Made by a program: the position numbers and the translations under genes
The notes under the pieces: generated by a model
The model's database searches: none
Told to the model about the DNA's origin: nothing
The model's input: only the letters and a program-made list of their open reading frames with translations
NCBI RefSeq assembly: GCF_004010195.1
Contig: NC_057719.1
Coordinates: 14,551,760-14,601,859, forward strand
Length of the DNA stretch: 50,100 nucleotides
Reading direction: 5' to 3'
From: Chiloscyllium plagiosum
Lineage: Eukaryota
In this document: in pieces, positions 5,115-39,198 of the stretch
Numbering within the stretch: position 1 is the first letter of the stretch
How the letters are laid out: each line of letters begins with the position of its first letter

Positions 5115-5152
5115 CTTCCAAATAAACCTGTTGGTCTATAAACTGGTGTTGT

Positions 5153-7020: not shown

Positions 7021-8960
7021 ATAAGAACATAAGAAATAGGAAGAGGAGTAAACTATTCAGCCCCTCGAGCTTGCTCAACCCTTCCATAGGATGATGGCCA
7101 ATCTGACATTCCTCATATCTATTTCCTTGCCCTTTCCCCCATGTCCCTTGATTCCCCCACTAATCAAGAGCCAATCTATCACAGCCCTAAATACACACAA
7201 GGACTCGGACCCCACAGCTCTCTGTGAGTCCAAAGACTCACAACCTTCTTAGAGAAGAAATTCCTCCTCATCTCTTTCCTAAATTGGTGCCGCTTTATTC
7301 TGAGACCATACCGTCTGGCCCATGAAGAGAAACGTCCTCTCAGCATTTACATTTTCAGGAATTATATATGTTTCAATGAGATCACGTCTCATTTTTGTAA
7401 TTTCCAATGAATAGAGTCACAACGTTGTTCATTAAACGATCCCTCCATAAGGGAATCCTCCTCGTGAACCTTCTCTGGATTACCGCCACTTAAATGATAG
7501 CTTCCCTGAAATAAGGGGACAAAACTCCTCACAGTACTGATGTGATCTCACCAGCACCTTATACAGTTAGCAAGACTTTTCCTGAAATCCTATTAAAATA
7601 AGGACCAACATTCCATTAACCTTCCTGACTACCTGCCGCACCTGTGTGCTTGCTTTCTATGTTTCATGTGTGAGGCTTCACAAGTCCCTTTGTGTTGCAG
7701 CTTTCTGCAGTTTTCTCCATTTAAATAATATTCTGTTCTCTTGCCCTCCCTTCCAAAATGAACTGTCATACATTTTCCCACATTATACTCCATTTGTCAA
7801 CTCCTATTTAACCTATCAATATCTCTCTGTAAACTGTTTGTATCGCTCTCAAACCTACTTTTCCACCGGTTTTTATGTCGTCTGCAAATTTGGCTCCAAC
7901 CCATTCAGTTCCTTCCTCCAAGTCATTGTTAGATATTGTAAACAGTTGTGGTCACAGCATTGATACCTACTGGTAATAGGTTGCCAGCCTGAGAAAGAAC
8001 CCTTTATTCGCTGTTTCCTATTTAGGAGTCAAATCTCTACCCACACCAATATATCTCCTCCAACATCATGGGCTCTTATCTTGTAACTTAACCTTTTTTG
8101 AGGTATGTTTTCAAACAGGTGTCCAAATAAACAGGTGTCCAAATAAAACACCTCTACTGGTTTCCCTCTATCCAGTTTGGTTGAGTCTTTCACAAAAAAC
8201 TCTTGCCAGACACGATTTGCTTTCATGAAGCCATGTTGGCTCTGCCTGATTATATTATGTTAAAAAACACACAGCACACAGATTATAGTCCAACAGTTTA
8301 ATTGGAAGCACACTAGCTTTCCAATTAAACTGTTAGACTATAACCTGGTGTTGTGTGATTTTTAACTTTGGACACCCCAGTCCAACACCGGCATCTCCAA
8401 ATCATGATTATGTTATGCTGGTTTTCCAAATGTTCTGCTATTTCTTCCTTAAAAATTTATTCCAACATTTTTCTAACAATGCTGGGCTAATCCATCTCCA
8501 CCAACCCATTTCTGCCTCCCTCCCTTTCTGAATAGAGGTGTCACATCAATCGTTTTCCAAGCCTCTGGTACAATTCCAGATCTTTGGAAAGTTACAACCA
8601 AAGCATCCATGACCTTTGTAGCTATCTCTTTAAGATCCTAACATGAAGCCATCATGGCCAAGGAACTTATCTGTGTTCAGGCCCATTAGTTTGCCTATTA
8701 CTACTTCTCTCATGATGATGGTTCTTAATTTCTCCTCTATATTCTTTAGTATTAATGCAATGTTCAAAGTACCTTCCACTGTAAAGATTGATTCAAATAT
8801 CTGGTTAACTCCTCTACATTTCCTTGTTCCCCATAACTGTCTCCTCAGATTCATTTTTGAAGGGGCCTATGTTCTCTTTGATTTCTCCCTTTCATTGTTT
8901 TTACATCTAAAGAAGCTCATACTGTCAGTTTTTTGTATTTGCCTTCATAGTTTCTGGGCT
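7021..8960 (-). mobile_element. Decayed CR1 LINE, RT region to 3' end
   Basis: The tail reads ATAAGAACATAAGAAATAGG. Minus-frame remnants include KLDRGKPVEVFYLD, KIRAHDVGG and GKLMGLNTDKFLGHDG. Confidence 0.85.
8260..8404 (+). mobile_element. Fold-back PLE-terminus mini-element, family A, with 13-bp TSD
   Basis: Imperfect inverted arms at about 8259-8308 and 8319-8366, then a 38-nt tail. TSD: TGATTATATTATG (8247-8259) and TGATTATGTTATG (8405-8417). Confidence 0.85.
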
Positions 8961-9169
8961 CACCTCACATTTTGTTACATTCCAACATGTACAGAGCCAA
9001 TCTACTCAACCTCTGCTCATAAGACAGTCCATCCATACCTGGTATCAGCCTTTTGCCTAATGCTATAAACAAGGTCGGATGGACACATCATTTCCTTTCT
9101 ACTCCCATTCTTCCACCAGTCACAATAAACATTCGATGTTGACAGGATGATGATGTGACCTATTATCAG

Positions 9170-9350
9170 GAAACATAAAAACTGGGAGCAGAAGCAGGCC
9201 ATCGGCATTTTCAGCCTGCTCTGACATTCAGTCAGATCATGCAAACATTTACACATAGAAATATGGAAAATAGGAGGGGAGGAGGCCATTCGGCCCTTCG
9301 AGGCTGCTCTGTCATTCATCACAATCATGGCTGATCATCCAACTCAATGG
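9170..9350 (-). mobile_element. Two abutting CR1 3'-end fragments
   Basis: GAACATAAAA...GGCCATCGG and CATAGAAATATGG...GGCCATTCGGCCCTTCGAG...ATCATGGCTGATC. Confidence 0.75.
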
Positions 9351-10293
9351 TTCCCCTCCAAGCACGGGATTGATGTGGATTTCACCAGTTTCCCAAGGAC
9401 AGAAATCTCCCCCCGTCCTCACCTTCCACCCCACTAACCTCCAGATACATCGCATCATCCTTCACCATTTCCACCACCGGCAAACGCATCCCACCACGAG
9501 AGATATATTTCCTTTCCCACCCTATCCACTTTCCATAAAGACTATTCCCCCTGCGACTCTCTTGTCAGGTCCACATCCCTCACCAGCCCATCCTCCCCTC
9601 CCAGCACTGCCACTGCAGGAATTGCAAAACCTGCACCCACACCTCTCCCCTCACCTCCGCCCAAAGCCCCAAGGAGCCTTCTACATCCATCAGAAATTTG
9701 CCTGCACTTCCACACATCATTTACTGTATCCATTGCTCCCGATGTGGTCTCCTCTATGCTACTTACACGTCGCCTACTTGCAGAACGCTTCAGAGAACAT
9801 CTCCGGGACACACGCACGAAGCAACCCCACTGCCTTGTGGCTGAACACTTCAACTTCCCCTCCCACTCCACCAAGGACATGCAGGTGCTGGGCCTTCTCC
9901 ATCGCAAAACCCTAACCACCCAACACCTGGAGGAAGAACACCTTGGGACCCTCCAACCATGCCGGATTAATGTGGATTTCACCAGTTTCCTCATTCCCCC
10001 TCAGAATGCCTCATCTTCCAACTCGGAATCCTTCAATTACACCGGATTAATGTGGATTTCACCAGTTTCCTCATTCCCCCTCCCAGATCCAACCTTTCAA
10101 CTCAGCACTGCCCTTATGACCTGCCATATCTGTCCATCTTCCTTCCCCCCATCCACTCCACCCTCCTCTCTGACCTATCACCTTCACCCCATCTCCATCC
10201 ACCTATTGCACTCTCAGCTAACTTTCCCCCAGGCCCACCCCCCTCCAGTTTACGTCTCCATCCCCTCGGCTCACAAGCCTCATTCCTGATGAA
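9350..10293 (+). mobile_element. Penelope-like element fragment: RT C-terminal linker, GIY-YIG endonuclease pseudo-ORF and pyrimidine-rich 3'UTR, ending in a truncated hammerhead
   Basis: Frames encode VLTFHPTNLQIHRIILHHF...PTTRDIFP, an IYCIxCSRCGLLY-like motif, and RLLAERFREHLRDTR...VAEHFN...SHSTKDMQVLGL...GTLQP..INVDFTSF. It ends with CATTCCTGATGAA. Confidence 0.92.
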
Positions 10294-11420
10294 TACCTTT
10301 CCTAACAAGAATCTATCCACCTCTGTCTTCAAAAATAATCAAATAAGCAAAAAAACCAGACTCCTCTGGTTTCTAAAGTTCTAAAGTCACACAATCCTCT
10401 GTTCTCCTCAATTCTCTCTAAAAAGGGCAACCCCTCATTTTAAAACAAAGCTGACCACCAACAAGAAGATGACTATTCAGAATCTTCTCTACTTCAAATA
10501 AATCACCCCTCACTCTTCAAAACTCCAATGGAAACAAACTCAGTCTGTCCAACCTTTCCTCATAAGATACCTCACTCATTCCAGATTTTCATCTTGTAAA
10601 CTACCTCTCACATAATTGCATCCTTCGTTTAAAAGGAGACCAAAGCTGCACACATTGAATCCCTATAGTGTGCAAACAGGCCATTTAGCCCACACCAACC
10701 CTCTGAACGGCATCCCACCCCACCCTCCTACCCTGTATTCCCCACATTTAATCTACCTAGCCTGTACATCACTGAATGCTATGGGTAATTTTGCACAGCC
10801 AATCCACCTAACATGCACATCCTTGGACTGTGAGACGAAACTGGAGCACCCAAAGGAAACCCATGCAGACACGAGGAGAATGTGCAAACTTCGCACAGAC
10901 AGTTGCCTGAGGGTGGAATCCAACCCAGGTCCCTGGCACTGTGAGGCAGCAGTGATAACCACTGAGCCACTGTGCCACCTCACAGTATTTGAAATGTCTC
11001 AGAAATGTCCTGGAAAACTGAAGTATCCTATCCTTACTTTTATGTTCAGTTCCTCTTGAAATAAAGGATAGGATCCCATCAGCCTTCTTGATGCCAGATC
11101 CCTATATTAACATTTGAGCCATATGCAATAGGACACGTAAATCTGTCCCCACTTCAGAATTGGGCATATGTTCTCCATTTAAGGTCTGCTCTGCCTTTTT
11201 AAAGTGAACATCCTCACATTTCCCCACATTATTTTCAAATCTGCCAGATTTTGCTCATGCACCCAATCTAGCCATATCTGTCTTCATCCTCTTTGTGTCT
11301 TCATCACAACATAGCTTCCGATTTATCTTTTTATCATGTGCAAATGCTGCCGCCATGCTTTTCATTTCCTTCATTTATTTCAGTGACATAATTTGCATAA
11401 AGCTGAGGCACCAGCACAGA
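10294..11420 (-). mobile_element. Old CR1 fragment, interrupted by HE1
   Basis: Degenerate reverse-strand CR1 RT/3' sequence (TCCAACCTTTCCTCATAAG; CTCACATTTCCCCACATT; TCATGTGCAAAT). Confidence 0.7.
10655..10980 (-). mobile_element. HE1-type SINE, near full length
   Basis: The minus-strand head is GGTGGCACAGTGGCTCAGTGGTTATCACTGCTGCCTCACAGTGCCAGGGACCTGGGTTGGATTCC, with Pol III A and B boxes. Confidence 0.92.
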
Positions 11421-11656
11421 CCGCTGTGGGCTGGGTAATCCAAGATGGAGGATGGGAAACAATTGTTGCTGTAAGAGCTGTTCCCTTTTTGAGGTATTTC
11501 AGGTATTGGAGCTGATTCCCTCGAATTCTAGGAGCAGTAATTACTGTTTTATAAGCTGTTGCATTGGTTTGGAACTTTGAGAACAAAAAGATCAAAACAA
11601 CGGCACTTTAAAAAAGACGAAGAGAGATAAATGCAGAGACCACATGGTCAGTGTAA

Positions 11657-11662
11657 GAGAGA

Positions 11663-11697
<35 letters not shown>

Positions 11698-11706
11698 GGA
11701 GGGAGG

Positions 11707-11752
<46 letters not shown>
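11657..11752 (+). repeat. (GA)n/(GGGA)n microsatellite
   Basis: Direct reading; it explains the ERERER ORFs. Confidence 0.97.
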
Positions 11753-11756
<4 letters not shown>

Positions 11757-11807
11757 AACCTACGTGAATCTGCACAGCTACTGCCTTTGCTGTTTGAGTT
11801 CAAGTAT

Positions 11808-12332
11808 TTGTATTGTGTGGAATTCTGGTCTCCTTCCTCTAGGAAGGATGTTGTGAAACTTGAAAGGGTTCAGAAAAGATCTACAAGGATGTTGCCAGGG
11901 TTGGAGGTTTGAGCTATAGGGAGAGGCTGAATAGGCTGGGGCTGTTTACCCTGGAGCATTGGAGGCTGAGGGTGAGACGTTTTACAAAATCATGAGGGGC
12001 ATGCATAGGGTAAATAGACAATATTTTCCCTGGGTTGGGAGAGTCCAGAATTAGAGGGCATAGGTTTCGGGTGAGAGCGAAAAGATTTAAAATAGGACCT
12101 AAGGGGGGGTGTGGTGCGTGTATGGAATGAACTGCCAGAGAAAGTGATGGAGGCTGGTACAATTACAACCTTTAAAAGACATCTGGACCTGTATATGAAT
12201 AGGAAGGGTTTAGAGGGATATGGGACAAGTACTGGCAAATGGGACTAGATTAATTTAGGATATCTGGCCAGCATGGACGAGTTGGACTGAAGGGTCTATT
12301 TCTGTGCTGTACATCTCTGTGACTCTATGACT
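11808..12332 (+). mobile_element. CR1 LINE 3' fragment
   Basis: YCVEFWSPSSRKDVVKLERVQKR. The 3' end is GGACTGAAGGGTCTATTTCTGTGCTGTA...GACTCTATGA. Confidence 0.93.
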
Positions 12333-12334
12333 TC

Positions 12335-12850
12335 ACTTATTACGTCCTGCCAATCAGAAAAGAGACTCATTTATGCATATTCCCTGTTTTCTGCCAGCCA
12401 GCCAATACAACCAGAAGATAAAACAATAGAGCGTAGAACAGGCCCTTTGGCTCTCGATGTTGGCGCCGACCTGTGAACTATTCTCACTACACCATCCCAT
12501 CATCATCCATCTGCTTATCCAAGGATTGTTTAAATCTCCATACTGTGGCTGAGTAAACTACATTGGCAGGTGGGGCATTCCACATCCTTACCACTCCATG
12601 TAATACCTGATACCGTGAGTTCAAACTTTGTGCAGTAACCTTTGATGTGGAACCTTGTCAAAGGTTTTCTGGCAATCGAAGTATAATATGTCTATAATTG
12701 CCCCTTTGTGCACAACGCAAGTTACACCTTCAAAGATTCCAGTAAACATTGGTTAAAGATAATTTCCCTTTCACGAAACCATGGTGACTTTTCCAATTAT
12801 TTGGAGTATTTCAAAATACCCAGTGGAAATCTCCTTAATGATCAGGGAGT
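12335..12850 (-). mobile_element. CR1 RT remnants with a nested CR1 3' fragment (about 12418-12600)
   Basis: ACCTTGTCAAAGGTTTTCTGG (a DFQKxFDKV-like motif on the minus strand), TTCACGAAACCATG (HGFV), and the tail AACAATAGAGCGTAGAACAGGCCC. Confidence 0.7.
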
Positions 12851-13589: not shown

Positions 13590-13825
13590 TTGAGCCAGTG
13601 ACACTGAGGAACGGTGATATGTTCCTAAGTCAGAATAGTGTGTGGCTTGAATGATAATTTCCCATGTATCCTTCCCGGGAAGTGGTGAGTATTCCATCAC
13701 ACTCCTAACCTGTGCCTTGTAGATGGTGGACAGGCTTTGTGGAGTCAGAAGATGACTTAGTCACTGCAGGTTACCAAGCCTCTGACCTGCTCTTTTAGCT
13801 ACAGTACTTGTATGGCTAGTCCAAG
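13590..13825 (-). mobile_element. Fragment of the second LINE family (the SINE partner, see 18580-20740)
   Basis: GTATTCCATCACACTCCT..CTGTGCCTTGTAGATGGTGGACAGG..CCAAGCCTCTGACCTGCTCTT. The reverse complement resembles 19660-19680 and 20340-20400. Confidence 0.6.
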
Positions 13826-13844
13826 GCACAACCTTCAGGGTGAA

Positions 13845-13990: not shown

Positions 13991-13991
13991 T

Positions 13992-14235: not shown

Positions 14236-14259
14236 TCCAAATCTAGATCTCCACAAGTA

Positions 14260-15155: not shown

Positions 15156-15612
15156 AACATTTGCCAGCCAAGCTGATGGAAACGATCTAAATCTATAACA
15201 ATATATCATACAGTGAATACAATTAATTTGCAATATTTCATTCTAGCTTCATTTACGCTTTTTCAAAACCAAAATGGCTTTTAAACTATGAAATTAAAGT
15301 GTAGATTTTAAGGCTGTGCTGTTCACTACACATCAACTACACATGAAAAATGGCAATTTGTTTATGTTTGTTTACAACTTATAAATATATTTGCTCAGAT
15401 AGCTCTTTTTTTCTGTTTTAAGTCCTGTGTGTTTTGATCTCCTAAATATCAAGCATTGTTTCCGTTTCTGTGTCCAGTTGGTTTTAAGACAAGTATGTTA
15501 ATTTCTGGAATAATACTCCCAACATGTGTGCCAGATTCATTTCCAGCCTCAAGCAGAGTTACAGAAAAAGCACATTGAGGGTGGAACCTGACCTGAATTC
15601 CCAAACTTTAAC

Positions 15613-15813
15613 GAGGCGAAAGTGAGGACTGCAGATGCTGGAGATCAGAGTCGAGATTAAAGTGGTGCTGGAAAAGCGTAGCAGGTCAGGCAGCATCTGA
15701 GCAGCAGGGAAATCGACGTTTCGGGCAAAAGCTTTTGCCTGAAACGTTGATTTTCCTGCTCCTCAGATGCTTCCTGCCCTGTTGTGCTTTTCCAGCACCA
15801 CTCTAATCCAGAC
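15613..15813 (-). mobile_element. Fold-back PLE-terminus mini-element, family B, with 15-bp TSD
   Basis: Arms of about 83 bp (15649-15731 and 15732-15814) meet inside hammerhead stem II (GGCAAAAG|CTTTTGCC). A 36-nt tail lies at 15613-15648. TSD: TTCCCAAACTTTAAC (15598-15612) and TTCCCAAATTTTAAC (15814-15828). Confidence 0.92.
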
Positions 15814-17609
15814 TTCCCAAATTTTAACCCAGGACAAGCCTTCATAACAGGGGATACCTTGCTAGTAACAATGATCCCAGTATCCGAGGGGCAAGAAGGC
15901 TGACTGGGTTGAGAAACATATCAGCCATGATCAAATCGTGGAACAGACTTGACAGGCTGAGTGGCTTAATTCTACATCATTTAACATTACTTTCATAAAC
16001 ATGTATTTCTCAACACACAAAATTGACTACATTTCAAAAGTCCTTAATTAACTGGAAGCCAAATCTTTAGATGACATTGTTTTGCTTTCAGCTGGAATTA
16101 TGTGTCCGAAGTGTCCAAAATAATTAATGGTTTTAATGGAGCAAATAATGGCTGCGCTCCAAAAATATTGGAATGACATTGAATGAGGCATTCATGCCCG
16201 ATAAGAATGGAGTGTTTTTAAAATGTTTGCCCTGTTAAACTTGTGCCCTATCAACATGTAATCCAGTTCTGAGCACCAGGTTGACACTGCATGAGGCACA
16301 TGTATCTGGTGAGAGTCGAGAGAATTTAAACTGTTAGAATATAGTGGTGAAAGCAGAATCTATAATTGCTTTTAAAAACAAGGCAGATGAATGTTTAAAG
16401 AAGAGAAAATTGATTCTGTATGAAGAATAAACGGGGATAGGACTAAGCATACACTTCTTTCAGGTAATTGGCATCAGCATGATAGACTTATAGCTTCCTG
16501 TACAGTGGAAATTATGCAACTTCGCTGGGCTCAAGTTATATACAAAACAGTACAGAATCAACTTGCAATGTTATAGCAATAAAGTTATTCGGGCATTTAA
16601 ACAAACGAGTAATAGCATGATATGGTGTAGTATATAGTGCAGAAATAGTGTTCTGAAAAATTGCCAAATTAGTTTAAAGTAAGCATTTCCAAACAGTGTG
16701 CAAGTGGTTGAGCTGTAAAGCACATCTGTGGCACAGATTTTCCGTTGACCTCCTACTGAAAGACAGCACTAGACTGTAGACATCACAAGCATGTTAAATA
16801 TCCCACATAAGATGGATGTTGCCTTTTTGTCACAGAGCCATCTCTTGGAATCCTGCTTGTTTCTTTGATTTGTTGCTTTCTGCTATATGCTTTAAAAGAA
16901 ATAAATATACTTCTACAGTACTACATTCGGCAGAACAAGTTCCTGAAGCCCAATAACTGTGAGCAAATTTGTTAAGTTATGGCAATTACATTAAATCCAC
17001 AATAATTCAAAGATTCAAAATCTTAAATATGAATGTCTTATTTTGTTTGGAAGGTTAATTTATTCTCAGTACCAGAATGATCTTCCCTATTTTAATCCTA
17101 CAATACAAGCAAATAAATATGTTTAGAAGCTGACTCTATCTCTTTAAGTGCTTTTTTATTAAAGTCTAAGATTTGTGCATACCAGCGGTGATTTTAATTG
17201 CAAATCCGAAAATCTCGGCAGTTGGGAGCCTCAAAGTCTGTGTTTCATCTGGACAGGACTCTATCCTGACCTTCTTTTATGGCTTCTAACATATTTTGCT
17301 GCTACACCCCCCCCCCCTCCCCCCACCTCCAAAAGTAGGCAATATCTGCCATGTGAAAGCATGTGCTTATGAGAAGTAATATAACTTGACTGACTGGCAC
17401 ACTCAGAAATCATACCCATGTTATACCATTTATCAAAAGCGCTCTATAAAGTTGTGATTTTTTTTGCCACACTGTGCAGAAACATAACAGTGCTATCTCT
17501 CCTGCCAATTAGTGTTTTTTCAATCATTTACCATTCAGTAGCCATAATGTAATCAGACCTGGTGTAATGTTAGCCTACCTGTATTTTTGAAAGTTTATCA
17601 CCTCTCCTG

Positions 17610-19475: not shown

Positions 19476-19699
19476 TTTGTATACATCCAAGACCCTGGAC
19501 AATATTCAGGTTGGAGCTGAAAAATGGCAAGTAACAATCGTACCACATAAGTGTTAGGCAATAATTATCGCCAACAAACTCTAATTATCGCACTTTGACA
19601 TTCCACAATCACTCTTTGACTAGAAACTTAACTGGATCGACCTCCTAAATACAGAGACTACAATAGCAGGTCAGAGGAAGGGTGGATAATCACATGATC

Positions 19700-20330
19700 A
19701 GCTGTTCACAATGCTCTACATCAAGCGCTGACTGAGTGACAGCTTTGGGGAACACTCGTGTCTGTCTGCAAAAATGACCTAAGTGTCTGGTTGATTGCCA
19801 CTTCAACACACCATCTTGTTCCCTGGCCAAAACATTAGCCTTGGATTTGCTGCAGTGCTCCACTCCAAGCTGGAAGAACAGCACCTCATTTTCCACTTGG
19901 GGACACTGCAGCCTTCGGAACTTTGTATCAAGTTCAATAATTTTAGGGCCTGAACACCTTCTTCCATGTCCTTTAGCCAACCCCTTCCCCTCATCCCAGG
20001 CCTTGTCATGACCTGGGCTTCCTTTAGCACAGCCGATCTATTTTCAACTACTTATGGCCCACATTAGGAACTCCTCTTTCTCCCTGGCTTACCAATAGAC
20101 ATCCCTTTGTCTGCCAAACTGTTTTTCTCTCCTTCTAGACTTCACCTCTACCTATCACTTACTCCTTTAGCCCACCCACCCACTCCCCCTTCCTGCCCCA
20201 CCACCACCTTTTGCTAACCTTCATTGATTCTGAAGAAGGGTCACTGGGCCCAAAGTGTTAATTTTGCTTTCTGTCCACAGATGCTGCCAAACCTGCTAAG
20301 TTTTTTTAGCAGTTTATGTTCTTGCTTTGG
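19700..20330 (+). mobile_element. Penelope-like element 3' fragment (GIY-YIG C-terminus, 3'UTR, degenerate family D hammerhead)
   Basis: F.EH, CHFNT and KLEEQHLIFHLGTLQPS...KFNNFRA*. At 20230-20260 the sequence is CTGAAGA-A-GGGTC-actg-GGCCC-AAAG-TGTT. Confidence 0.88.
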
Positions 20331-21254
20331 GTAATCACATCCTGGCTCCCCGAAATATCTAAAAAGTACAAATCAGGAATACTCTCTACTTCCACTGATG
20401 TAACAATCCATTGACACTTGATCAATTTGCCATGTTCTTCAACTGCACCTTGAACCTAAAATCTCTGTCACCCAGAGGGATAAGGGTAGCAGCTGAATGG
20501 AATTGTTGCTACCTGCAAGTTCACATTGAAGCTATATACCATCCTGACTTGGAGTCATATCCCCAGTCCTTCCTTGTTGTTAGCTCAAAAGCTTGCAACT
20601 CTTTGCCTAATAGCACTGTACACTACTTGGATTTGAGTACTTCAAGAGGGTAGTTTACCTTCACAAAGGAAGTCAGGGCTAGGCAATCAAAGTTGGCCTT
20701 TGCAATGATGCTCACATCCCATGGGCAAAGAAAAATTTTAGTGACAGGTCTATCTTTCCAGGTTCTTTTCACAAACTAGCCTGGTCAATCATTAATATTG
20801 CCCTAGAGTACAACAGGCCTGTCTGGTGCATGTATCGTATTACCAAGTCTGTTAAAGGATTAACTTTGTTCTGAATTTCCATTAGCAGGCGTGTCTTTCT
20901 GAAGCCACGTCAACCTTAAAGATACCCTGCTCAAAACAATAAAGAATACTTAAAAGCCAGATTAGTAGCAATGCTGCAAGTTCAGTAATGGTTAGACCTC
21001 CTTAAATGTGAGTTGTATTTAAATGTTGAATATAAAATCGAATAAACTCCACTTCTATTTCTTTTTGAAAGCTGTTTCCTCCATCCTTACATTCTTTTTC
21101 GCTTTGCTGTATTACATGCCAAGGCAAAGAACCAGTCAAAAGAGTTAGCAGGGACAACGTTTACAGATTTATCAATCTGCTGTAACACTGAAGTGCAGGA
21201 ACAAGAGAGTAATAAATGACCATGCATTCCACACATCAAACCTTCAGTGAAGCA

Positions 21255-21949: not shown

Positions 21950-22187
21950 ATGTACAGAGAGTGGTGAGCCTATAGAATTTTCTGCCACAGGAAACTGTTG
22001 AAGCCAAAACATTGAATGCTTTCAAGAGGGGGTTACACGTACGTCTTAGGGCTTAAGGGATGAAAGAGTATGGGGAGAAAGCAGGGAGTGGGTTCTAAGT
22101 TGGATAATCAGCCATGATCATAATGAACAGTAGAGTGGAAACTCAGGGCCAAAAGGCCTACTGCTGCTGCTCTATTCCATGTTTCTA
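21950..22187 (+). mobile_element. CR1 3' end
   Basis: CAGAGAGTGGTGAGCCT..CAGCCATGATC..GGCCTACTGCTGCT..TTCCATGTTTCTATG. Confidence 0.85.
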
Positions 22188-22314
22188 TGATGTGAAGGTG
22201 CCGGTGTTGGCCTGGGATGGACAAAGTTAAAAATCACATGAAGGAGCAGTGCTCTGAAAGCTAGTGCTTCCAAATAAACCTGTTGGACTATAACCTGGTG
22301 TTGTGTGATTTTTA
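22188..22314. mobile_element. Asymmetric fold-back PLE-terminus mini-element, family A
   Basis: A 38-nt tail (22188-22225) and short arm GTTAAAAATCACA precede an opposite-orientation copy that starts within the hammerhead (TGAAGGAGCAGTGCTCTGAAAGCTAGTG). Probable TSD: TCCATGTTTCTA and TCTATATTTCTA. Confidence 0.8.
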
Positions 22315-22459
22315 TCTATATTTCTAGACAACTTGCTTAGTTTGTTTCTGCTACAACATGTATTAAAATTTAATTAACTTTTTTTTATTATTCATTCATG
22401 CGACATGGCTGTGTCAGTATTTATTGCCTGTCCCCAGTTGCCCTGGAGACGGTGATTCA

Positions 22460-27285: not shown

Positions 27286-27361
27286 GAATCTTAGAAGGAG
27301 GCCAGTCAGCCCCTCATGTCTGCACTGGTTCAGACTGAATGTATAATTCATCCAGCTCCAT

Positions 27362-27875: not shown

Positions 27876-28068
27876 GTTATTCTCCTGATGTCTAACTCTG
27901 CGCATTCATCCCTTCCAGATAACATGAAGATATGCGTTAGGAGGAGTGGGGTTCTCAGCTCTCAGATCTGCACTGTCATTCAATAAAGTCATTGCTGATC
28001 TGATGTCTCTTTACATTATCGCCTACTCCTAAAAACACTTCACCCCCACTTTCCTAACAAGAATCTAT

Positions 28069-28229
28069 CTATTAAACAAAACAGAACTGAAAGATCTGAG
28101 GATGCTGTAAATCAGAAACAAAAACAGAAATTGCTGGAAAAGCTCAGCAGGTCTGGCAGTGTCTGTGGAGTGAAATCAGAGTTAATGTAGTGCTGAGGAA
28201 GGATCATACGACCTGACATGTTAACCCTG
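28069..28229. mobile_element. PLE-terminus mini-element, family D, with short inverted part and 10-bp TSD
   Basis: A minus-oriented terminus (GATGCTGTAAATCAGAAAC..TTGCTGGAAAAGCTCAGCAGGTCTGGCAG) is followed by plus-oriented CTGAGGA-A-GGATC..GACCT-GACA-TGTT. TSD: AAGAATCTAT at 28059-28068 and 28230-28239. Confidence 0.75.
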
Positions 28230-28357
28230 AAGAATCTATTGATCTCTGATTTGAGAAATATTCAAAGACTCTGTTTCCATCAGCTTTTGAAGAAGAGAGC
28301 TCCAAGTTCCTAAAACTCACTGTCCTCTCTATCTTAAATGAGTAACCCCTGACTTGA

Positions 28358-28564
28358 TAAAAACAAGTGTTGGAAAGCAGAGTCTAGATTAGAGTGGTGC
28401 CGGAAAAGAACAGCAGGTCAGGCAGCATCCAAGGAGCAGGAAAATCAACGTTTCAGACAAAAGCCCTTCATCAGGAATGATGAAGGGCTTTTGCCCAAAA
28501 CATTGATTTTCATGCTCCTTGGATGCTGCCTGACCTGCTGTGCTTTTCCAGCACCACTTTAATC
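28358..28564. mobile_element. Fold-back PLE-terminus mini-element, family B, with back-to-back hammerhead motifs and 15-bp TSD
   Basis: Arms at 28385-28473 and 28478-28566 surround a GGAA spacer. TSD: TAACCCCTGACTTGA (28343-28357) and TAACCCCTGATTTGA (28565-28579). Confidence 0.92.
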
Positions 28565-28588
28565 TAACCCCTGATTTGAATACAGTGA

Positions 28589-28712
28589 TGAAGGGCTTTT
28601 GCTCGAAACATCGAGTCTCCTGCTCCTCAGATGCTGCCTGACCTGCTATGCTTTTCTGTCATTACTCTTATCTTGACTCTAATCTCCAGCGTCTGCAGTC
28701 TTCGCTTTTGCC
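28589..28712 (+). mobile_element. Single-arm PLE-terminus mini-element, family B, with perfect 13-bp TSD
   Basis: TGAAGGGCTTTTGCTCGAAACATCGA...CTCCAGCGTCTGCAGTC. TSD: TTGAATACAGTGA at 28576-28588 and 28713-28725. Confidence 0.9.
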
Positions 28713-28945
28713 TTGAATACAGTGACTGCTAATTCTAGATTCTCCCACAAGAATCTCGAATCCTTTCAGTATGCACCTGATTGAGACTGTTCAGCATCTT
28801 TTATGTATAATCATGTTGTCTCTTACTTTTCTAAACCCTAGCAGATGCAAGCCTAGCCTGAGCAACGTTTCCTCATAGGGCAATCCACCCAGTCTTGGTA
28901 AGAATCCATTAAAACCTTTCTGACCTGCTTCCAACATATTTACAT

Positions 28946-29045
28946 ATGTACACCCACCCCCAGTCCTGAAGAAGGGTTACACCCGAAACATTGACTTCTC
29001 CACCTCCTGATGCTGCCTGGCTTGCTGGGTTCTTCCTGCTTGCCA
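28946..29045 (+). mobile_element. PLE-terminus mini-element, family C, with perfect 16-bp TSD
   Basis: TSD: TCCAACATATTTACAT at 28930-28945 and 29046-29061. It is homologous to the terminus of the PLE at 32935-33560. Confidence 0.9.
28962..28996 (+). ncRNA. Minimal type I hammerhead motif, family C
   Basis: AGTC-CTGAAGA-A-GGGT-tac-ACCC-GAAA-CATT-GACT. Stems I and II are perfect 4-bp stems; stem III has a CG-to-CA change. Confidence 0.8.
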
Positions 29046-29104
29046 TCCAACATATTTACATCGTTCATTAAATTTCCTTGGTTCGTCAATGCAGGGTGAC
29101 AATA

Positions 29105-31105: not shown

Positions 31106-31792
31106 TGTAATCTTATTAATGACTGAGGTCAGGCTAATCAGCCTATAGATTCCTGCCTTCTGCCTCTTTCTCTTCTTAAATAGGAGTGTTACAGGAGCTC
31201 TTTTCTCCCCAGCCCTCTGGCACCCTCCTTGACTCCAGTGATTCGTGAAAGATCACCAGCAATGCCCTTACAATCTCCTCAGCTATCGTCTTCAGGACTC
31301 TGGGGTGTAGTCCATTTGGTCAAGGTGAATTATCCACCTTCAGACCTTTCAGCTTCCCCAGCACCTTCTCCTTAGTGATGACCACAACATTTACCTCTGA
31401 CTCCTGATACTCATGAAGTTCTGGGATGTTGCTACTCTCTTCCACCATGATGACTGAGGCAAAGTACCTATTCAGTTCGTCTGCCATTTCTTTGTTTCCT
31501 ATCACTACTTCTAGTACCTCATTTTCCAGCAGTCCAATGTCCATTACTGCCTCTCTCTTACCTCCTGATATCTAAACAAAAACTTACAATTATTTTTATA
31601 TTACTAACGAGCTTATTCTCAAATTTCATCTTCTTCCCCCTTATTGCTTCTTGCAATATCCTCTGCTGGTTTTGAAAGGCTTCCTAATCTTCTCGTTTTT
31701 CACTAATCTTCACCACATTGGATGACTTTTCTTTTGCTCTTATGCTGTCCTTGACTTCCCTTATCAGTCACGGTTGCCTCGTCCTCTCCTTA

Positions 31793-31937
31793 TTCTGGAT
31801 CAATGGTGCTGGAAGAGCACAGCAATTCAGGCAGCATCGAGGAGCTCAATGCTGCCTGAATTGCTGTGCTCTTCCAGCACCATTGATCCAGAATCTGGTT
31901 TCCATCATCTGCAGTCATTGTTTTTACCTCATTTTTA
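31793..31937 (+). mobile_element. Fold-back PLE-terminus mini-element (B-related) with perfect 46-bp arms and 16-bp TSD
   Basis: 31792-31837 is the exact reverse complement of 31849-31894. TSD: CCTCGTCCTCTCCTTA (31777-31792) and CCTCATCCTCTCTTTA (31938-31953). Confidence 0.92.
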
Positions 31938-32334
31938 CCTCATCCTCTCTTTAGTATGTTTCTTCCTTCTTGATAGGAATTTCTGTTGTGCCTCTCGAAT
32001 TACCCCCAGAAACTCCTGGCATTGTTGCTTCACTGTCTTCCCTGCTAGGCTCGCCTTCCAACCAACTCTGACTAGTTCCTCCCTCATGTCTTTGTAGTTT
32101 CCTTTACTCAGTTGTAACACCATTACATCTGATTCCAGCTTCTCCCTCTTAGACTGCAGGGTGAATTCTATCATACCATGGTCACTGCTCCCTAGGGATT
32201 CCTCCACCTTAAGCTCCCTGATCAAATCTGCCTCATTACACATCATCCAATCCTGAATTGCCTGTGCCTGAGTGGGATCTGCCACAAACTTCTCCTATTC
32301 AGCCTCTCCCATTAGCTCAAGCCCCCCAACCCTG

Positions 32335-32427
32335 ATTCCTGATGAAGGGCTTATGCCCGAAACGTTGATTCTCCTGCTCCTCAGATGCTGCCTGACTGGC
32401 TGTGCTTTTCCAGCACCACACTCTTGA
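32335..32427 (+). mobile_element. Single-arm PLE-terminus mini-element, family B, with 11-bp TSD
   Basis: TSD: CCCCAACCCTG at 32324-32334 and 32428-32438. Confidence 0.9.
32337..32368 (+). ncRNA. Minimal type I hammerhead ribozyme motif with intact core, family B
   Basis: tc-CTGATGA-A-GGGC-ttat-GCCC-GAAA-CGTT-ga. Stem III is the loopless palindrome AACGTT. Confidence 0.85.
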
Positions 32428-32759
32428 CCCCAACCCTGGCAACATCCTTGTAAATCCTTTCTGAACCTTTTCAAGTTTCACAACATCATTCCAGTAGGAG
32501 GGAAGCAAGAACTGCACGCAAAATTCGAAAAGTGGCCAAACCAATGTCCTGTACAGCCGCAACGTCACCTCCCAACATCTCACATAAACAAGCTGAAAAA
32601 AGTCTTCAACCTATTGGCAATTACAAAGACTGAGGCCCATGTACACCTGACCTCCTGGTCCCTAACCTGTCTCAATCACAGTCACACCATCGTTTCTGTG
32701 ACCAGAGATCTAATTAGAATATTCGAAGGAGTTGTGACACCCTGCGAACAATGAGATGA

Positions 32760-33745
32760 CGACCCAGTGGTATTGTTACTGGACCACTACTGCAGACACC
32801 CAAGTAATATTCCACAGACCCAGGTTCAAATCCCCCATGGCAGTTAGTGGAATTTGAATTTAATAAAACCCTGGAATTCAGAGTTTAATGATGACCATGA
32901 AATCATTGCTAATTGTTGGGGAAAAATACACTAACAGGAGGTGGGAAGAACATAGCAAGGCAGACAGCATCAGGAGGTGGAGAAGTCAACATTTCAGGAG
33001 TAACTGTTCTTCAGGACTGGGGCTGGAGTAAGAAGAGCTCAAGATAAAGAGGGGGTGGCGGAGGGTTTTGGGTGGGGAGAGGGGCAGCATGGTAAAGTAG
33101 TGATAGGTAAACACAGGTAGAGGGTACGGCCTGCTTTATTGATGGGAGGAATGAATCCATTTGGTGGCTGGAAGGGTTAATAAGTAGAATGAAAGGGAGG
33201 AGGAGGGGCTGGACAGGGAGTCAGGTGGATAGGAAGGGAGGTTATTTGAAACTGGAAGTTTTCCAGGCGGAAGATGAGGTGTTGTACCTCAGTGAGTCGT
33301 TCCCTAAGTTTACGTTTGGTCTCACTGATGTAGAGAAGACCACATTGGAAGCACCGGATACAGTAAACTCAGTTGGAGGAGAGGTAGGTGAACCTCTATC
33401 TCACCTGGAAGGACTGTTTGGGGCCCTGGATGGAGATAAGGGGGGTGGTGTGCTGGCAGGTTTTGTACCTTTTACAGTTGCAGGGGAAGGAACCCGGGGC
33501 TTCAGCAGGGAGTATGGCATGAACCAAGGAATGATGAAGGGAGCGGTCCTTGCAGAAGGCAGAAACACCCACCAGCTACACTTATGTTCTTTCAGGAAGG
33601 AAGCTACTGTCAGGTCTTCACATGACTCCAGACCCACAGGATTATGGTTGATTCTTAACAGTATTTAACTTAACAATTAGGGATGGGAAATTAATGCTGG
33701 TCTGGTCAGTGACACCCACGTCCGAAGAACAAAAATGAAAAAACT
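32760..33745 (+). mobile_element. Shark SINE, family 2, split by a PLE (pieces about 32760-32930 and 33565-33745)
   Basis: Head: CAGTGGTATTGTTACTGGAC..CCCAGGTTCAAATCCC..GGAATTTGAATTT. Tail: ACATGACTCCAGACCCACAG..CAATTAGGGATGGGAAATTAATGCTGG. Confidence 0.85.
32935..33560 (-). mobile_element. Penelope-like element 3' fragment with GIY-YIG pseudo-ORF and family C hammerhead terminus
   Basis: The minus strand encodes IQGPKQSFQVR..FTYLSPN.VYCIRCFQCGLLYISETKRKLR. The hammerhead remnant AGTC-CTGAAGA...GAAA-TGTT-GACT lies at 32984-33018. Confidence 0.9.
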
Positions 33746-34979
33746 TCCTGAATAAAGTGGCCAGTAAACATTCCTCTCCTGGATACATCACAGTGTCTGT
33801 AGTTCACCCTCCAACCTATAAACTCTGAACTGAAGCTGATCAAGCTATGGCAGATATGTTTACCCTGGATCACCTGGGCATCCAGGAACTCCCACTTGTT
33901 CTTTATTCACTTGTGGGATTTGAGCAATGCTGACTTGGCCAGCATTTATTGCCTTGTCCCTAGTTGCTCTTGGGAAATGGTGGTGCCTTCTTGAACTGCT
34001 CCTGTCCACATGCTATAGGTAGACCCACAATGCTACTCGGGAGGGAATACCAGGGACATCCTGCAAATACATCTCCCAATTTCATTGTGCTTGAATTAAG
34101 TAATGTATTTAGTATTTGGTTAATTAACTTTTAAATAAATTAATATCCCTTCTCGCCACGACTCACTGTACTAATTAATATCTTAGAATTCAATAAATTT
34201 TACCACTTAAGAATTATATAAATAATGGAAACATTAGATTCTTACTTCCCTTTTGCAATAGGCTTGAGGTTTCCATGATGCTGCTAATTGCCTGTCTTGG
34301 GGTCCACTGATTGCTGTTCTATTTTGAATTCCCATTTGAATGCTTCGATTGAATTTGTTCCCACCATAGGCTCAAGCAGTGCACTGTTGACCTTGACCAC
34401 ACACTGCATGATAAAAGATTTCCCTCATGCTGATTTTGTTTCTTTTGCCAAATAATATAAATCTATGCCCTCTCATTTACAAGCGTGGGCAGTTTTTCCT
34501 TATCTATTCTCTGTCCATCATTGTGAATGCCTCCATCCAACCTCATCTCAGGCCTCTCTTTGTCAAGGAAGCTCCTCATGCCCGGGAATGTGTTAATAGA
34601 TTCTGATTCAATCTACCTGCACTCATTAATTATTTGTTTCATTTATCCAGACTGCATTGGAGTGGAGCATCCCACTGCATACACTGCTCTTCACAAATAT
34701 TCACAGAACTTTAGATAATTTTGTCCATACTATTGCTGGAAATACAATTTAATACAATGAAGGCAAGAAAAGGCTTCTTGGATGTTGATGAACAATTGAA
34801 CACACATTCCGTGAACAAATGAATGTAAAGGTTTGGAAAATAAACAAAGGATGAGAAGATTGAAGTGGACAAGATGAATTAATTATGTCAATGCTGGAAC
34901 GGAGTAGGAAATATTAGATTAAGAAAAGAAGTTTATTTACTTTTAATTTTAAATCTGATTTTAAATTTTAAATACTTTT

Positions 34980-35105
34980 TTTTCAGCAAAGGTATTAAGG
35001 GACAAATGCAGATATATAGAGTTCGGTCACTAAACAACCATGATCTCATTGAACAGTGGAACAGGATTGTGGTTTGAATGGCCTACTCCTGTTCTTCTGT
35101 TTCTG
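34980..35105 (+). mobile_element. CR1 3' end
   Basis: AGCAAAGGTATTAAGGG..CCATGATCTCATTGAA..GAATGGCCTACTCCTGTTC. Confidence 0.75.
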
Positions 35106-36013
35106 TGTAAACAGGACGTTTCTTTAAAGACTGACAAATGTTAGATCTCCAACTTAAAATAACAGCTCTCCACCACCTTCATGACGTCAACTAGAGATAG
35201 GCATTAAATGCTGGCCAGCCAGCGAAGCCCGCATCCCACAAATGAAATAAAATAAAAAGTACATAAGTCCATGCAAGTCACATTTCCAATTGTACACTTT
35301 CCTGGTAAGGTTAACAAGGAATGCCAGGAGAGAATACTTACACTGTTAATTATGGATGTACTTCAAATTCTGCATAAAACCTACTTCTTCCACCGTACCT
35401 TTGATCATGCAGCTTAAAGTCTCCTCTCAGAGCTTGCTGTCAGCTCTGTAAAGCATCTTGGAATATTTCACTTTATTTAAAGGGACTATTATTATCAATA
35501 AAAGTTTTTTTGATTAAAGTTTTGCAGCATGTTAGTGGGCAATTAATCTGCAAATGCTGAAACCTCATGAAAATTACGGAGACATTAAGGGTGAGATGCA
35601 GTTTTCGCAAAACTCGTGCTGAAATGTTGCAAATCATCCGACAAATTGGGGCAATTTGCAATTGACAGGGTGTATCTTTTTCACCATTGGCTCATTTGCA
35701 TGCACAGTTCATACACCATTATTTTTTCTCAGCAAATTCTGGCAATTATTTTGACAAGAGTCAGAGAGTGATAGAAATGTACAACACAGAAACAGACCCT
35801 TCAGTCCAACTTGTCCAGCTCGACCAGATATCCTAATCTAATCTAGTCCCATTTGGACAATGTTCCCCTAAACCCTTCCTATTCATAAACCCATCCAGAT
35901 GCCTTTTAAATGCTGCAATTGTACCAGCCTCCACCAGTTCCTCTGGCAGCTCATTCCATACACGCACCACCCTCTGTGCTGTGGTTCTGTTCGCCGAGCT
36001 GGAAGTTTTTGTT

Positions 36014-36053
36014 GCAAACGTTTCGTCCCCTGGCTAGGCGACATCATCAGTGC
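36014..36053 (-). ncRNA. Hammerhead ribozyme motif, family E (left arm, minus strand)
   Basis: GCA-CTGATGA-T-GTCgCCT-agcc-AGGgGAC-GAAA-CGTT-TGC. Confidence 0.85.
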
Positions 36054-36275
36054 TTGGGAGCCTCCTGCGAAGCGCTTCTTTGATGTTTCCTCCGGTGTTT
36101 ATAGTGGTCTGTCCCTGCCGCTTCCGGTTGTCAGTTTCAGCTGTCTGCTGTAGTGGTTGGTATATATACTAACCACTACAGCGGACAGCTGAAACTGAAA
36201 ACCGGAAGTGGCAGGGACAGACCACTATAAACACCGGAGGAAACATCAAAGAAGCGCTTCGCAGGAGGCTCTCAA

Positions 36276-36315
36276 GCACTGATGATGTCGCCTAGCCAGA
36301 GGACGAAACGTTTGC
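36276..36315 (+). ncRNA. Hammerhead ribozyme motif, family E (right arm, plus strand)
   Basis: GCA-CTGATGA-T-GTCGCCTAGCCAGAGGAC-GAAA-CGTT-TGC. Confidence 0.85.
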
Positions 36316-39038
36316 AACAAAAACTTCCAGCTCGGCGAACAGAACCACAACAACGAGCACCCGAGCTACAAATCTTCGCACAAACTTTGACCACCCTCTG
36401 TGTCAAAAGGTTGCCCCTGAGGTCCCTTTTAAATTTTTCGCCTCTCACCCTCAACCTATGTCCTCTAGATCTGGACTCCCCCATCCCAGGGAAAACACCT
36501 TGTGTATTTATCCATGCCCTCATGAGATTATAAACCTCTATAAGGTGATCCCTCAGCCTCCAACTCTCCAGGGAAAACAGCCCCAACCTGTTCAGCCTCT
36601 CCCTGTAGCTCAAATCCTCCAACCCTGACAACATCCTTGTAAATCTTTTCTGAATCCTTTCAAGTTTCATAACACCTTTCCTATAAGAGGGAGACTAGAA
36701 TTGCACACAATATTCCAAAAGTGGCCTAACCAATGTCCTGTACAGCTGCAACATGACCACCCAACTCCTGTACTCAGTGCTCTGACCAATAAACGAAAGC
36801 ATACCAAACGCCTTCTTCACTATCCTATCTACCTGCAACTCCACTTTCAAGGGACTATGAACTTGCACTCTAAGGTCTCTTTATTCAGCGACACTCCCCA
36901 GGTGTATAAATCCATTAAGTGTATAAATCCTGCCCTGATTTGCCTTTTCAAAATGTAGCACTTCACATTTATCTAAATTAAACTCCATCTGCCACTCCTC
37001 AGCCCATTGGTTCATCTGATCAAGGTCCTGTTGTAATCTGAGGTAACCCTCTTCACTATCCACTACACCTTCAATTTTGATGTCATCTGCAAACTTACTA
37101 ATTATTACCTCCTATTATTCACAATCAAATCATTTATATAAATGACAAAAAACAGTGGTCTCTGCACTGATCCTTGTGGCACACCACTGGTCACAGGCCT
37201 CCAGTCTGAAAAAACAACCCTCCACCACCACCCTCTGTTTTCTACCTTGGAGCCAGTTCTGTATCCAAATGGTTACTAGTTCTCCCTGTATTCCATGAGA
37301 TCCAACCTTGCAAACAGTCTACCATGAGAAACCTGGTCGAATGCTTTACTGAAGTCCACATAGATCACATCCACCACTCTGCCCTCATCAATCCTCTTCA
37401 TTTGTTCTTCAAAAAAAACTCAAGCAGGTTAGTGAGACATGATTTCCCGTGCTCAAACCCATGTTGACTATCCTTAATCAGTCCTTGCCTTTCAAAATAT
37501 ATGTACATCCTGTCGCTCAGGATTCCTTCCAACAACCTGCCCATCACCAATATCTGGCTCACCGGTCTATAGTTCCCTGGCTTTTCCTTAACACCTTTCT
37601 AAAAAAGTGGCACCACATTAGCCAACCTTCAGTCTTCCTGCACCTCATCCATGACTATCGATGATACAAATATCTCAGCAAGGGGCCCAGCAATCACTTC
37701 CCTAGCTTCCCACAGAGTTCTAGGCTACACCTGATCTGATCCTGGGGATGTATCCACCTTTAAGATATCCAGCACCTCCTCCTCTGTAATATGGACATTT
37801 TTCAAGATGTCACCATCTATTTCCCTACATTCTATATCTTTCAAATCCTTCTCCACAGTAAACACTGATGCAAAATACTAATTTAGTATCTCCACCATCT
37901 CTTCTGGCTCCACACAGAGGCTGCCTTGCTGATCTTTGAGGGGCCTTTTCTCTCCCTAGATATCCTTTTGTCCTTAATGTATTTATATAATCCCTTTGGA
38001 CTCTCCTTAACCCTATTTGCCAAAGCCATTTCATGTCCCGTATTTGCCCTCCTGATTTTCCTCTTAAATGTACTCCTACTGCCTTCATACTCTTCTAAGG
38101 ATTCACTCAATCTCTGCTGTCTATACCTGGCATACGCTTCACATTTTTTTCTTAACCAAAACCTCAATTTCTCCAGTCATCCAGCATTCCCAACACCTAC
38201 CAGCCTTGCCCTTCACCCTAACAGGAATGTACTGTCTCTGGACTCTTGTTCTCTCATTTTTGGCTTCCCATTTTTTAGATGTCCCTTTACCTGCAAACAT
38301 CTGCCCCCAATCAACTTTGAAAGTTCTGGCCCAATACCCTCAATATTGATCCTCCTACAATTTACAACTTCAACTAAAGTATACACAGGGTATGGGTTTC
38401 ATGTAGGAGACGTACCAGCTTACAAACTGGTGAGAGTCCCATGTCAACTGTTTTTGTGAAGACCTGCCATATTACTGCCAATCACACAACTAAATGGGCA
38501 GTGATGGACCTTCTAAAGGATATAGGGACCCAGAGGCAAAGATCCCACCTGCTGATAGCTACCAGAAAAACCAAAGACTAGTTAATCATCATTGCTCAGC
38601 AGCACTACTGCAGAATGGTGGCCAATGCCGATAATATTCCCAGCTGAGACCAAGACTGCTGAAGGCTTTGGGCACAGGAGTACCACCAGAGGGTGGGGGT
38701 CATGGAGAACCTAGATGAGGTTTTGTTTCAATTCATTCAAAGGATGAGGGTGCCGCTAGCCAAGCCAGCATTTATTGTCCATCCCTAATTGCCCAGAGGC
38801 CAGTTAAGAATCAACCACATTGCTGTGGCTCTGGAGTCACGTGTCGGCCAGACCAAGTAAGGATGGCAGTTTTCACCCCTAAAGGGAACCAGATGGGTTT
38901 TTCAAATAATCGATAATGGATTCATGGTTATCATTAGACTCTTAATTCTAGATTTTGCTGAGTTCAAAGTACACCATTTGCCATGGTGGGATTCAAACTC
39001 ATTTCCCCAGATCATTACCTGGGTCTCTGGATTAACAG

Positions 39039-39198
39039 CTGAAAATGTGTTGCTGGAAAAGCNNNNNNNNNNNNNNNNNNNNNCTTATGCCCGAAACGTC
39101 GATTCTCCTGTTCCCTGGATGCTGCCTGACCTGCTGTGCTTTTCAAGCAACACATTTTCAGCTCTGATCTCCAGCATCTGCAGACCTCACTTTCTCCT
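39039..39198 (+). mobile_element. Fold-back PLE-terminus mini-element, family B, containing an assembly gap; 15-bp TSD
   Basis: The arms are AGCTGAAAATGTGTTGCTGGAAAAGC and GCTTTTCAAGCAACACATTTTCAGCT. The hammerhead 3' half is CTTATGCCCGAAACGTC, and there is a 35-nt tail. TSD: TCTCTGGATTAACAG and TCTTTGGATTAACAG. Confidence 0.88.
39063..39083. other. Assembly gap (21 N)
   Basis: Direct reading. Confidence 1.

Follow-up and report, generated by a model that had tools for sequence, protein, structure and literature searches.

A tail of 30-40 nt is described as a general feature of Penelope-like elements (PLEs) in PMC8557442, PMC3846280 and PMC11167929, the repeat in Drosophila virilis is 34 bp (PMC2377424), and a minimal hammerhead motif in the pLTR is a further PLE feature (PMC4209133). 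In vitro, an anole PLE cleaves and extends both target strands and has two internal RT starts, the tail being the sequence between them; initiation remains internal and is unmoved by lengthening the RNA at its 3' end, and a dimer is predicted (PMC11167929). Inverted products and the spacing across families are not treated in that paper. Neither an explicit twin-priming model for PLEs nor shark PLE palindromes were found in the literature searched, most subscription papers lying outside it. The tail pattern described here is real yet mostly ordinary, the tail itself being already known, and the gain is small and mechanistic.

The window analysed here is a stretch of 50,100 nucleotides from Chiloscyllium plagiosum, for which a preliminary description had listed seven palindromic inserts as inverted-pLTR insertions of PLEs and had named D. 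virilis as the precedent. All seven are present within 1-2 nt of the reported positions, and an eighth fold-back at 28069-28229 (~108 nt unpaired) had been missed; the precedent holds, except that the tail is described for PLEs in general rather than for D. virilis alone. The reading of the fold-backs as 5'-truncated PLE stubs is supported. The features that mark such insertions (a minimal hammerhead motif in the pLTR, an optional 30-40 bp tail, and an inverted 5'-truncated copy of variable length with a TSD) were all found, the sequence predicting a hammerhead-type core with stem II at five places (B, D and E copies) and family A showing, by eye, no more than a decayed form. No hammerhead was among the eight Rfam matches, all of them below the gathering score and mostly to hairpin-shaped miRNA models. 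A scan with the motif pattern gave 0 hits in viral contigs, 0 in genome contigs and 14 loci in metagenome contigs, which were counted as chance because their likeness to the window ended, in every case, with the motif plus a few bases. A decayed ORF end with the GIY-YIG region (9340..10295, plus strand) runs into the start of a B-type hammerhead core; within it, the remnant at 9762-10001, which adjoins the B-type end, is 71% identical to P0001 (E 6.7e-19), whose own Pfam matches are weak, both under the curated cut-offs (GIY-YIG, E 2.5e-4; RVT_1, E 0.008). The top Atlas match of the remnant was a GIY-YIG cluster (0.92), while Pfam gave no significant match for three fragments of the window. 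No full-length ORF was seen in the window, nor any ORF for families A and E; with no ORF tying them to RT here, A and E are classed as PLEs by their hammerhead core, their tail and their TSD. A MITE or foldback DNA transposon does not fit, as one arm begins 27-44 nt inside the element end, the TSD varies from 10 to 16 bp, the centres of the B copies differ, and single-arm copies with TSDs occur.

The seven listed fold-backs belong to three lineages of PLE ends (family A twice, the B clan four times, family E once), and their TSDs are, in order of position along the window, 13, 15, 12, 15, 16, 13 and 15 bp. Tail lengths are given as ranges on account of 0-2 junction bases common to TSD and element. 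The first family A insert (8247..8417; TSD 8247-8259 / 8405-8417) has a tail-less minus arm (8260-~8320) and a tailed plus arm (~8319-8404) with a tail of 38-39 nt (8366/7-8404). In the second (22176..22326), a tailed minus arm made up of the tail plus ~12 nt (22188-22238) meets a longer tail-less plus arm (22239-22314); the tail is 39-40 nt (22188-22226/7), and the TSD of ~12 bp with 2 mismatches was drawn by eye, the automatic search returning only its 6-bp core. The B-clan insert at 15598..15828 (TSD 15598-15612 / 15814-15828) has a tailed minus arm to 15732, with a tail of 36-37 nt (15613-15648/9), and a tail-less plus arm (15731-15813). At 39024..39213 (15-bp TSD), a tail-less minus arm (39039-39062) faces a tailed plus copy ending at 39198, with a tail of 35-37 nt (39162/4-39198); a 21-N assembly gap at the centre of this insert (39063-39083) precludes arm lengths. 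The family E insert (35966..36402; TSD 35966-35978 / 36390-36402) has arms of ~186 nt that are 95% complementary, hammerhead cores at 36021-36050 (minus) and 36279-36308 (plus), and a tail of 37-39 nt (36351/3-36389). The two exceptions noted previously were confirmed: the B-clan ('C') insert at 31777..31953 (16-bp TSD; tail-less minus arm 31793-31845, tailed plus arm from 31845) has a tail of 43-44 nt (31894/5-31937), with an 11-nt tandem duplication spanning the junction of tail and TSD, and the B-clan insert at 28343..28579 (15-bp TSD), in which both arms reach the hammerhead core, has one of 27-29 nt (28358-28384/6). In the latter ~9 nt are absent internally when compared by eye with the related copy at 31895, which looks like a deletion. 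The eighth fold-back (28059..28239; 10-bp TSD), from a B-related family ('F'), consists of a long tailed minus copy and a 40-nt inverted piece whose end lies far upstream of the inner site.

The unpaired tail thus measures 35-40 nt in five of the seven listed TSD-bounded fold-backs, or five of eight when 28069-28229 is included, and the probability that five of eight tails fall within 5 nt by chance is 0.006, 0.0006 or 0.00006 for uniform lengths of 0-60, 0-110 or 0-200 nt. The tail at 22188 came to 39-40 nt, for which 38 nt had first been given, and the families first called unrelated came down to three lineages, the copy at 31792 being a homologue of B. Solo copies occur beside the fold-backs. 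Among the four that are flanked by TSDs, one has the tail (28576..28725, B clan, plus strand; element 28589-28712, 13-bp TSD) and three do not: a B-related ('D') copy at 28930..29061 (plus; element 28946-29045, hammerhead core 28966-28988, 16-bp TSD), a B-clan copy at 32324..32438 (plus; core 32339-32362, 11-bp TSD), and a 632-bp copy at 19683..20340 (plus; decayed hammerhead-like core, 13-bp TSD) with a decayed ORF end like the endonuclease terminus of the 9340 remnant. Two of these three, at 32335 and 19696, terminate at or near the inner, tail-less site of their family. A further tailed B-clan solo (4598..4701, plus) is 96% identical to 39094-39197, and no TSD was found around it.

End positions were also surveyed in public contigs, for family E only and for the best 6 places per run (373 further places existed), the counts being of ends of contigs and not of paired ends of single insertions. 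Among the places listed, 234, 231 and 261 contigs ended at 36390 in runs X1 (which may be the window's own source), X13 and X14, and 162 (X1, three places) and 144 (X14, two places) ended at 36352-36354, the piles lying 36-38 nt apart. Run X13 had no inner-site pile among the places listed; its copies differ at 36320-36326, so that short pieces there may escape alignment. No reads of the RNA run X22 aligned, a result that says nothing on expression. The flanks at these ends are long and unrelated (median 255 nt, agreement 0.37-0.39) and look AT-rich; nine TSDs in the window are not A+T-richer than the window itself (57% vs 58%). The preliminary description had set its proposal against a broad, unpeaked distribution of tail lengths, and since the family E contigs end at two sharp places, the distribution looked at here is peaked. 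Positions differing in at least 20% of the depth in some run numbered 1 of 62 in the terminal part vs 19 of 125 upstream (P = 0.004, with a boundary set after the helix described below had been seen, and with variants near contig ends under-listed), and conservation of family E's final ~60 nt extends over three organisms.

We consider it likely that the fold-backs are insertions of EN+ PLEs in which two cDNAs were primed at two fixed internal sites of the RNA. The GIY-YIG endonuclease would nick both target strands 10-16 bp apart, as the TSDs suggest, leaving two 3' ends that would each prime a separate cDNA on element RNA. Each cDNA would start internally, at one of two sites lying ~36-38 nt from one another close to the end of the pLTR. 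The sequence or fold of each family's RNA would set these sites, and the geometry of the protein-RNA complex probably underlies their conserved spacing. If one strand began at the outer site and the other at the inner site, and if both cDNAs stopped early and were joined head-to-head where a few bases are self-complementary, the outcome would be a palindrome tailed on one side; survival of a single cDNA would leave a solo copy, tailed or tail-less. The earlier suggestion of two priming events at a staggered cut is supported by the tail-less arm: in three of six resolved centres it goes beyond the tailed arm in the 5' direction, by 11, ~65 and 4 nt, and there contains family sequence that its partner does not have. 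In one centre the tailed arm is the longer, and in two the arms are about even. Against this reading, five of the six centres depart from symmetry by no more than 11 nt, which fold-back synthesis would likewise produce, and the inner site is not the one used in the fold-back at 28069-28229. Microhomology as the primer at the inner site was not supported (9 shared bases over seven junctions vs 5.2 expected, P = 0.11). Shark-like genomes offer many short copies with the two start sites as well as the two cut sites preserved.

The two start sites may be placed by an RNA helix, one strand of which lies in mid-tail; this idea is possibly new and weakly supported. In family E, with the inner start site at 36352-36354 and the tail end at 36390, the predicted helix pairs 36329-36335 with 36361-36367. 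It is conceivable, if somewhat doubtful, that a conserved RNA helix is gripped by a dimer of the PLE protein whose two RT sites begin synthesis to the left and right of the helix's 3' strand, one for each target strand, so that the fold-back stubs would record a two-headed reverse transcription. In lineages A, B and E this 3' strand would fall in mid-tail, at tail nt ~9-22. Two template copies would be used, with the place given by the helix and the 36-38 nt spacing by the dimer, in much the way that elements of telomerase RNA set a template boundary. The helix test failed or was non-significant in four of eight copies, the few copies compared have the helix either unchanged or decayed, and folding z-scores of whole fragments were weak in all eight (-0.08 to -1.39). 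The fold in Fig. S2C of PMC11167929 may already show it. If the dimer-on-helix arrangement were true, tail, inversion and TSD would be explained in one step, and template choice in PLEs would be linked to that of their telomerase relatives.

The preliminary description had instead proposed a sequence-independent step that measures length, i.e., the second primer is set a fixed number of nucleotides from the start of the first cDNA, whatever the sequence. Such a ruler agrees with the 35-40 nt spacing that three lineages share although their tails are dissimilar, as well as with published elements at 31, 34 and 30-40 nt (PMC3846280, PMC2377424 and PMC8557442), and the tail is steadier than the distance from hammerhead core to tail end, which varies from 82 to 106 nt. 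In the copy at 28358 the inner end lies 3-6 nt upstream of that of its relatives, and restoring ~9 nt gives 36-38 nt (one copy, by eye). However, the three tail-less solos lack a partner to measure from and two end at or near the inner site, the terminus of family E barely varies, and in vitro starts stay put upon 3' extension (PMC11167929). Sequence independence is therefore unsupported, both ends being fixed coordinates of the family RNA, and since the outer site is itself fixed in the family E piles, a constant spacing requires no measuring. What stands of the claim is that the steadier spacing makes some geometric constraint plausible; we regard a pure ruler as unlikely. Less likely still is snap-back or self-priming, by which one cDNA (or antisense RNA) folds and is copied back, stopping ~37 nt before its start. 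The near-symmetric centres on short self-complementary matches fit it, and self-priming was proposed for rotifer PLE palindromes in PMC3846280, but the extra sequence in the tail-less arm of three resolved inserts does not, the tail cannot derive from the tail-less arm, and TSD-flanked tail-less solos are left unexplained. It is very improbable that the tail reflects endonuclease trimming at resolution of a transposition intermediate with no second start site, for although recognition by the D. virilis endonuclease depended on the tail (work cited by PMC11167929), later in vitro work places both tail boundaries at RT start sites (PMC11167929).

Compared with canonical EN+ PLEs, the insertions described here share an inverted truncated copy, a one-sided tail, a hammerhead-type core in the pLTR and a putative GIY-YIG ORF upstream, and the TSDs are similar (8-10 bp in rotifers, 10-16 here). 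They differ in that both copies are very short, the whole insert being a hairpin of 130-410 bp, and several families occur within one window, which allows side-by-side measurement. In L1 twin priming, as Ostertag and Kazazian are said to have described in 2001, the first primer sits on poly(A) and the second at a variable internal microhomology, and the two pieces reportedly hardly overlap. There, as in the reading given here, both target 3' ends prime cDNA, the join is head-to-head and the TSD is kept, whereas in the present inserts each start has a fixed place and the two arms are copies of one region. Twin priming of the L1 type does not fit, there being no poly(A), a fixed inner end, and overlapping arms in seven of eight fold-backs. 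The insert at 28069-28229 looks L1-like. The resemblance to Poseidon of Anolis carolinensis (PMC11167929) includes a tail bounded by two internal start sites, an ATG within the hammerhead core of family E, its frame staying open across the tail, and, again in family E, an inner site that is A/C-rich; by eye count in the sequence given in the Methods of that paper, the Poseidon RNA also has a 6-bp helix with its 3' strand in mid-tail, like B and E.

Repeats were abundant in the window, whose DNA resembles that of a vertebrate and includes what we take, by eye, to be LINE and SINE fragments. An inverted-repeat search of the window returned 86 pairs, and six of the seven hairpins of the preliminary description were among the 25 longest, the seventh, at 22188, having an arm of ~12 nt. 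All seven are fold-backs of Penelope-like elements (PLEs), flanked by target-site duplications (TSDs) of 12-16 bp (the TSD at 22176 was set by eye). The near-constant unpaired tail described for them is a real pattern: taken in the sense direction, from TSD boundary to TSD boundary, five inserts had tails of 38-39, 36-37, 39-40, 37-39, and 35-37 nt (35-40 nt overall). The tail at 31895, which includes an 11-nt duplication, was longer (43-44 nt), and that at 28358 was shorter (27-29 nt), lacking ~9 internal nt relative to the 31895 copy. An additional, eighth fold-back at 28069-28229 has a 10-bp TSD and ~108 nt unpaired, and five of the eight tails fall within 5 nt (P of 0.006 or less under a flat distribution). 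The tail had been said to span unrelated families; more than one lineage does carry it, but BLAST grouped the window copies into just three, A, E, and a B clan that takes in the previously unlabelled copies at 31792 and 28358.

Several copies showed features of their own. The 11-nt tandem duplication (31922-31943) bridges the junction of tail and TSD and may reflect either slippage at a later time or re-alignment right after priming. In the copy at 28358-28564, whose tail is short by ~9 nt, the inner end is displaced 3-6 nt upstream relative to related copies; this one case hints that both ends may move in concert. At 28059-28239, two pieces of an old PLE fold-back overlap by only ~12 nt, as in L1 twin priming on a single RNA, unless the second arm suffered a later deletion. 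A ~270-nt piece of family A terminal repeat (pLTR) at 4886-5157, around which a TSD was looked for and not found, stops ~7 nt short of the usual inner site and abuts a SINE-like piece of opposite orientation. Other sequence fills the ~1.1 kb between a set of inverted arms (110 nt, 86%, and 29 nt) at 45575-45717 and 46764-46905, which were not matched by PLE probes and are perhaps an old DNA transposon, and arms of 84 nt (98% complementary) at 131-214 and 430-513, at a strand switch within a LINE-like piece, look like a young 5' inversion.

The best reading of the tailed inserts, and one we consider quite probable, is that priming occurred twice, at fixed RNA sites: an outer site where the tailed copy ends and an inner site where the tail-less copy ends. 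The preliminary description had proposed a length-measuring, sequence-independent step, in which the spacing of the two starts is set by length. Length survives solely to explain why the spacing is conserved. In favor of such a constraint, the spacing holds at 35-40 nt while the hammerhead core lies anywhere from 82 to 106 nt from the end of the tail. The single-arm (solo) copies argue against sequence independence. One solo with a TSD reaches the outer site (28589-28712), and three tail-less solos have TSDs, two of which (32335-32427 and 19696-20327) terminate at or near the inner site, while the third (28946-29045) has no tailed relative within the window for comparison. The inner site thus works without a surviving partner. 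Family E also argues against sequence independence: positions differing in at least 20% of depth in some public run numbered 19/125 upstream versus 1/62 from 36329 onward (P = 0.004), with the boundary picked post hoc, under-listing of variants close to contig ends, and an end region that may also be coding, given its open ATG frame of 37 codons.

The inserts run TSD, minus copy, plus copy, TSD, and the element 3' ends both face outward. By the established logic of TPRT, this layout is expected when a staggered cut primes two cDNAs, as in L1 twin priming. When each arm was aligned to an independent copy, the tail-less arm extended beyond the tailed one in the 5' direction at 8260 (by 11 nt), 22188 (~65 nt), and 31793 (4 nt); the reverse was true at 28358 (5 nt), the arms were about even at 15613 and 35979, and 39039 contains a gap. 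Because a single cDNA folding back cannot yield 8260, 22188, and 31793, RNA was probably the template for both arms. Two priming events at a staggered cut, as had been suggested, are favored by these three inserts and by the outward 3' ends; since the arms span the same region, they would need a second copy of the template or else displacement of the first cDNA.

In each lineage, a predicted 7-9-bp helix can pair upstream sequence with the middle of the tail. It lies at tail nt 10-18 in the B copies (reached by 58, 66, and 25 of 1000 shuffles; pairing probability 0.90-0.98), at nt 9-15 in E (43/1000; 0.93), and at nt 14-22 in A with the upstream sequence taken from the 22239 copy (21/1000), the other two A comparisons giving 187/1000 and 309/1000 with competing folds. 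In three more copies (28610, 31845, and 28071) the helix was lacking or non-significant. As the B copies do not count as independent cases, this candidate anchor of the sites is a lead only. Counted by eye, the anole RNA given in PMC11167929 has a 6-bp helix at the same place, which Fig. S2C of that paper may already draw.

The family E arm (36172-36420) was compared with three public DNA runs from three organisms, in which 9998, 5329, and 13286 contigs aligned, and with one RNA run, in which none did, a count with no bearing on expression. Among the matches listed (18 rows, with 373 further rows beyond them), loose ends with long unrelated flanks piled up at 36390 (234, 231, and 261 contigs), with a second pile at 36352-36354 in runs X1 (76+46+40) and X14 (83+61); listed matches of X13 lacked this second pile and had 41 at 36389 and 23 at 36387, and those of X14 included 55 short loose ends (median 16 nt) at 36377. 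The piles are 36-38 nt apart, agreeing with the window copy. An unpeaked distribution had been named as refuting the constant tail; the distribution is peaked, for family E only and for ends rather than paired tails. Around 36208-36300, depth in X13 fell from ~230,000 near 36190 to ~6,000 near 36285 and then rose to ~2 million in the tail, suggesting that organisms differ in the pLTR middle but share its end.

A hammerhead-type core with stem II was found at five places, each 5' of a tail and in its orientation, and these cores match the minimal motif characterized in PLE pLTRs in PMC4209133. Three B-related ends are preceded by decayed ORF ends, one of which (9762-10001) is 71% identical to P0001, a bamboo shark protein according to its source and the sole match among 50 candidates. 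P0001 has weak Pfam matches to RT and GIY-YIG, and the best Atlas match, at 0.92, was to a GIY-YIG protein cluster. Because these matches are weak and a Pfam search of the window's own fragments gave nothing significant, the B clan is only moderately linked to an RT/GIY-YIG protein; A and E are classed as PLE by structure alone. At 9962-10082, ~40 nt from the end of the ORF remnant are present twice, with complex junctions, and a similar stretch starts the remnant near 9365. The family E ATG lies within the hammerhead core, and its 37-codon frame (36282-36392) is open through the tail, much as the anole ORF begins at stem II.

An explicit PLE twin-priming model was not found in the literature searched, most subscription papers being outside that coverage. 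PMC8557442 reports that PLE insertions carrying inverted 5'-truncated copies often have a 30-40-bp tail on one side and shows it in every endonuclease-positive clade drawn, PMC3846280 describes rotifer insertions with a 31-bp tail, inverted pLTR, and 9-bp TSD, for which it suggests self-priming, and PMC2377424 gives a 34-bp repeat in D. virilis. According to PMC11167929, purified anole PLE cuts and extends both strands, reverse transcription begins at two internal RNA sites unmoved by lengthening of the RNA 3' end, and the tail is the RNA sequence lying between them. From these four reports, tailed fold-backs are therefore a known class, and the main result is already in print.
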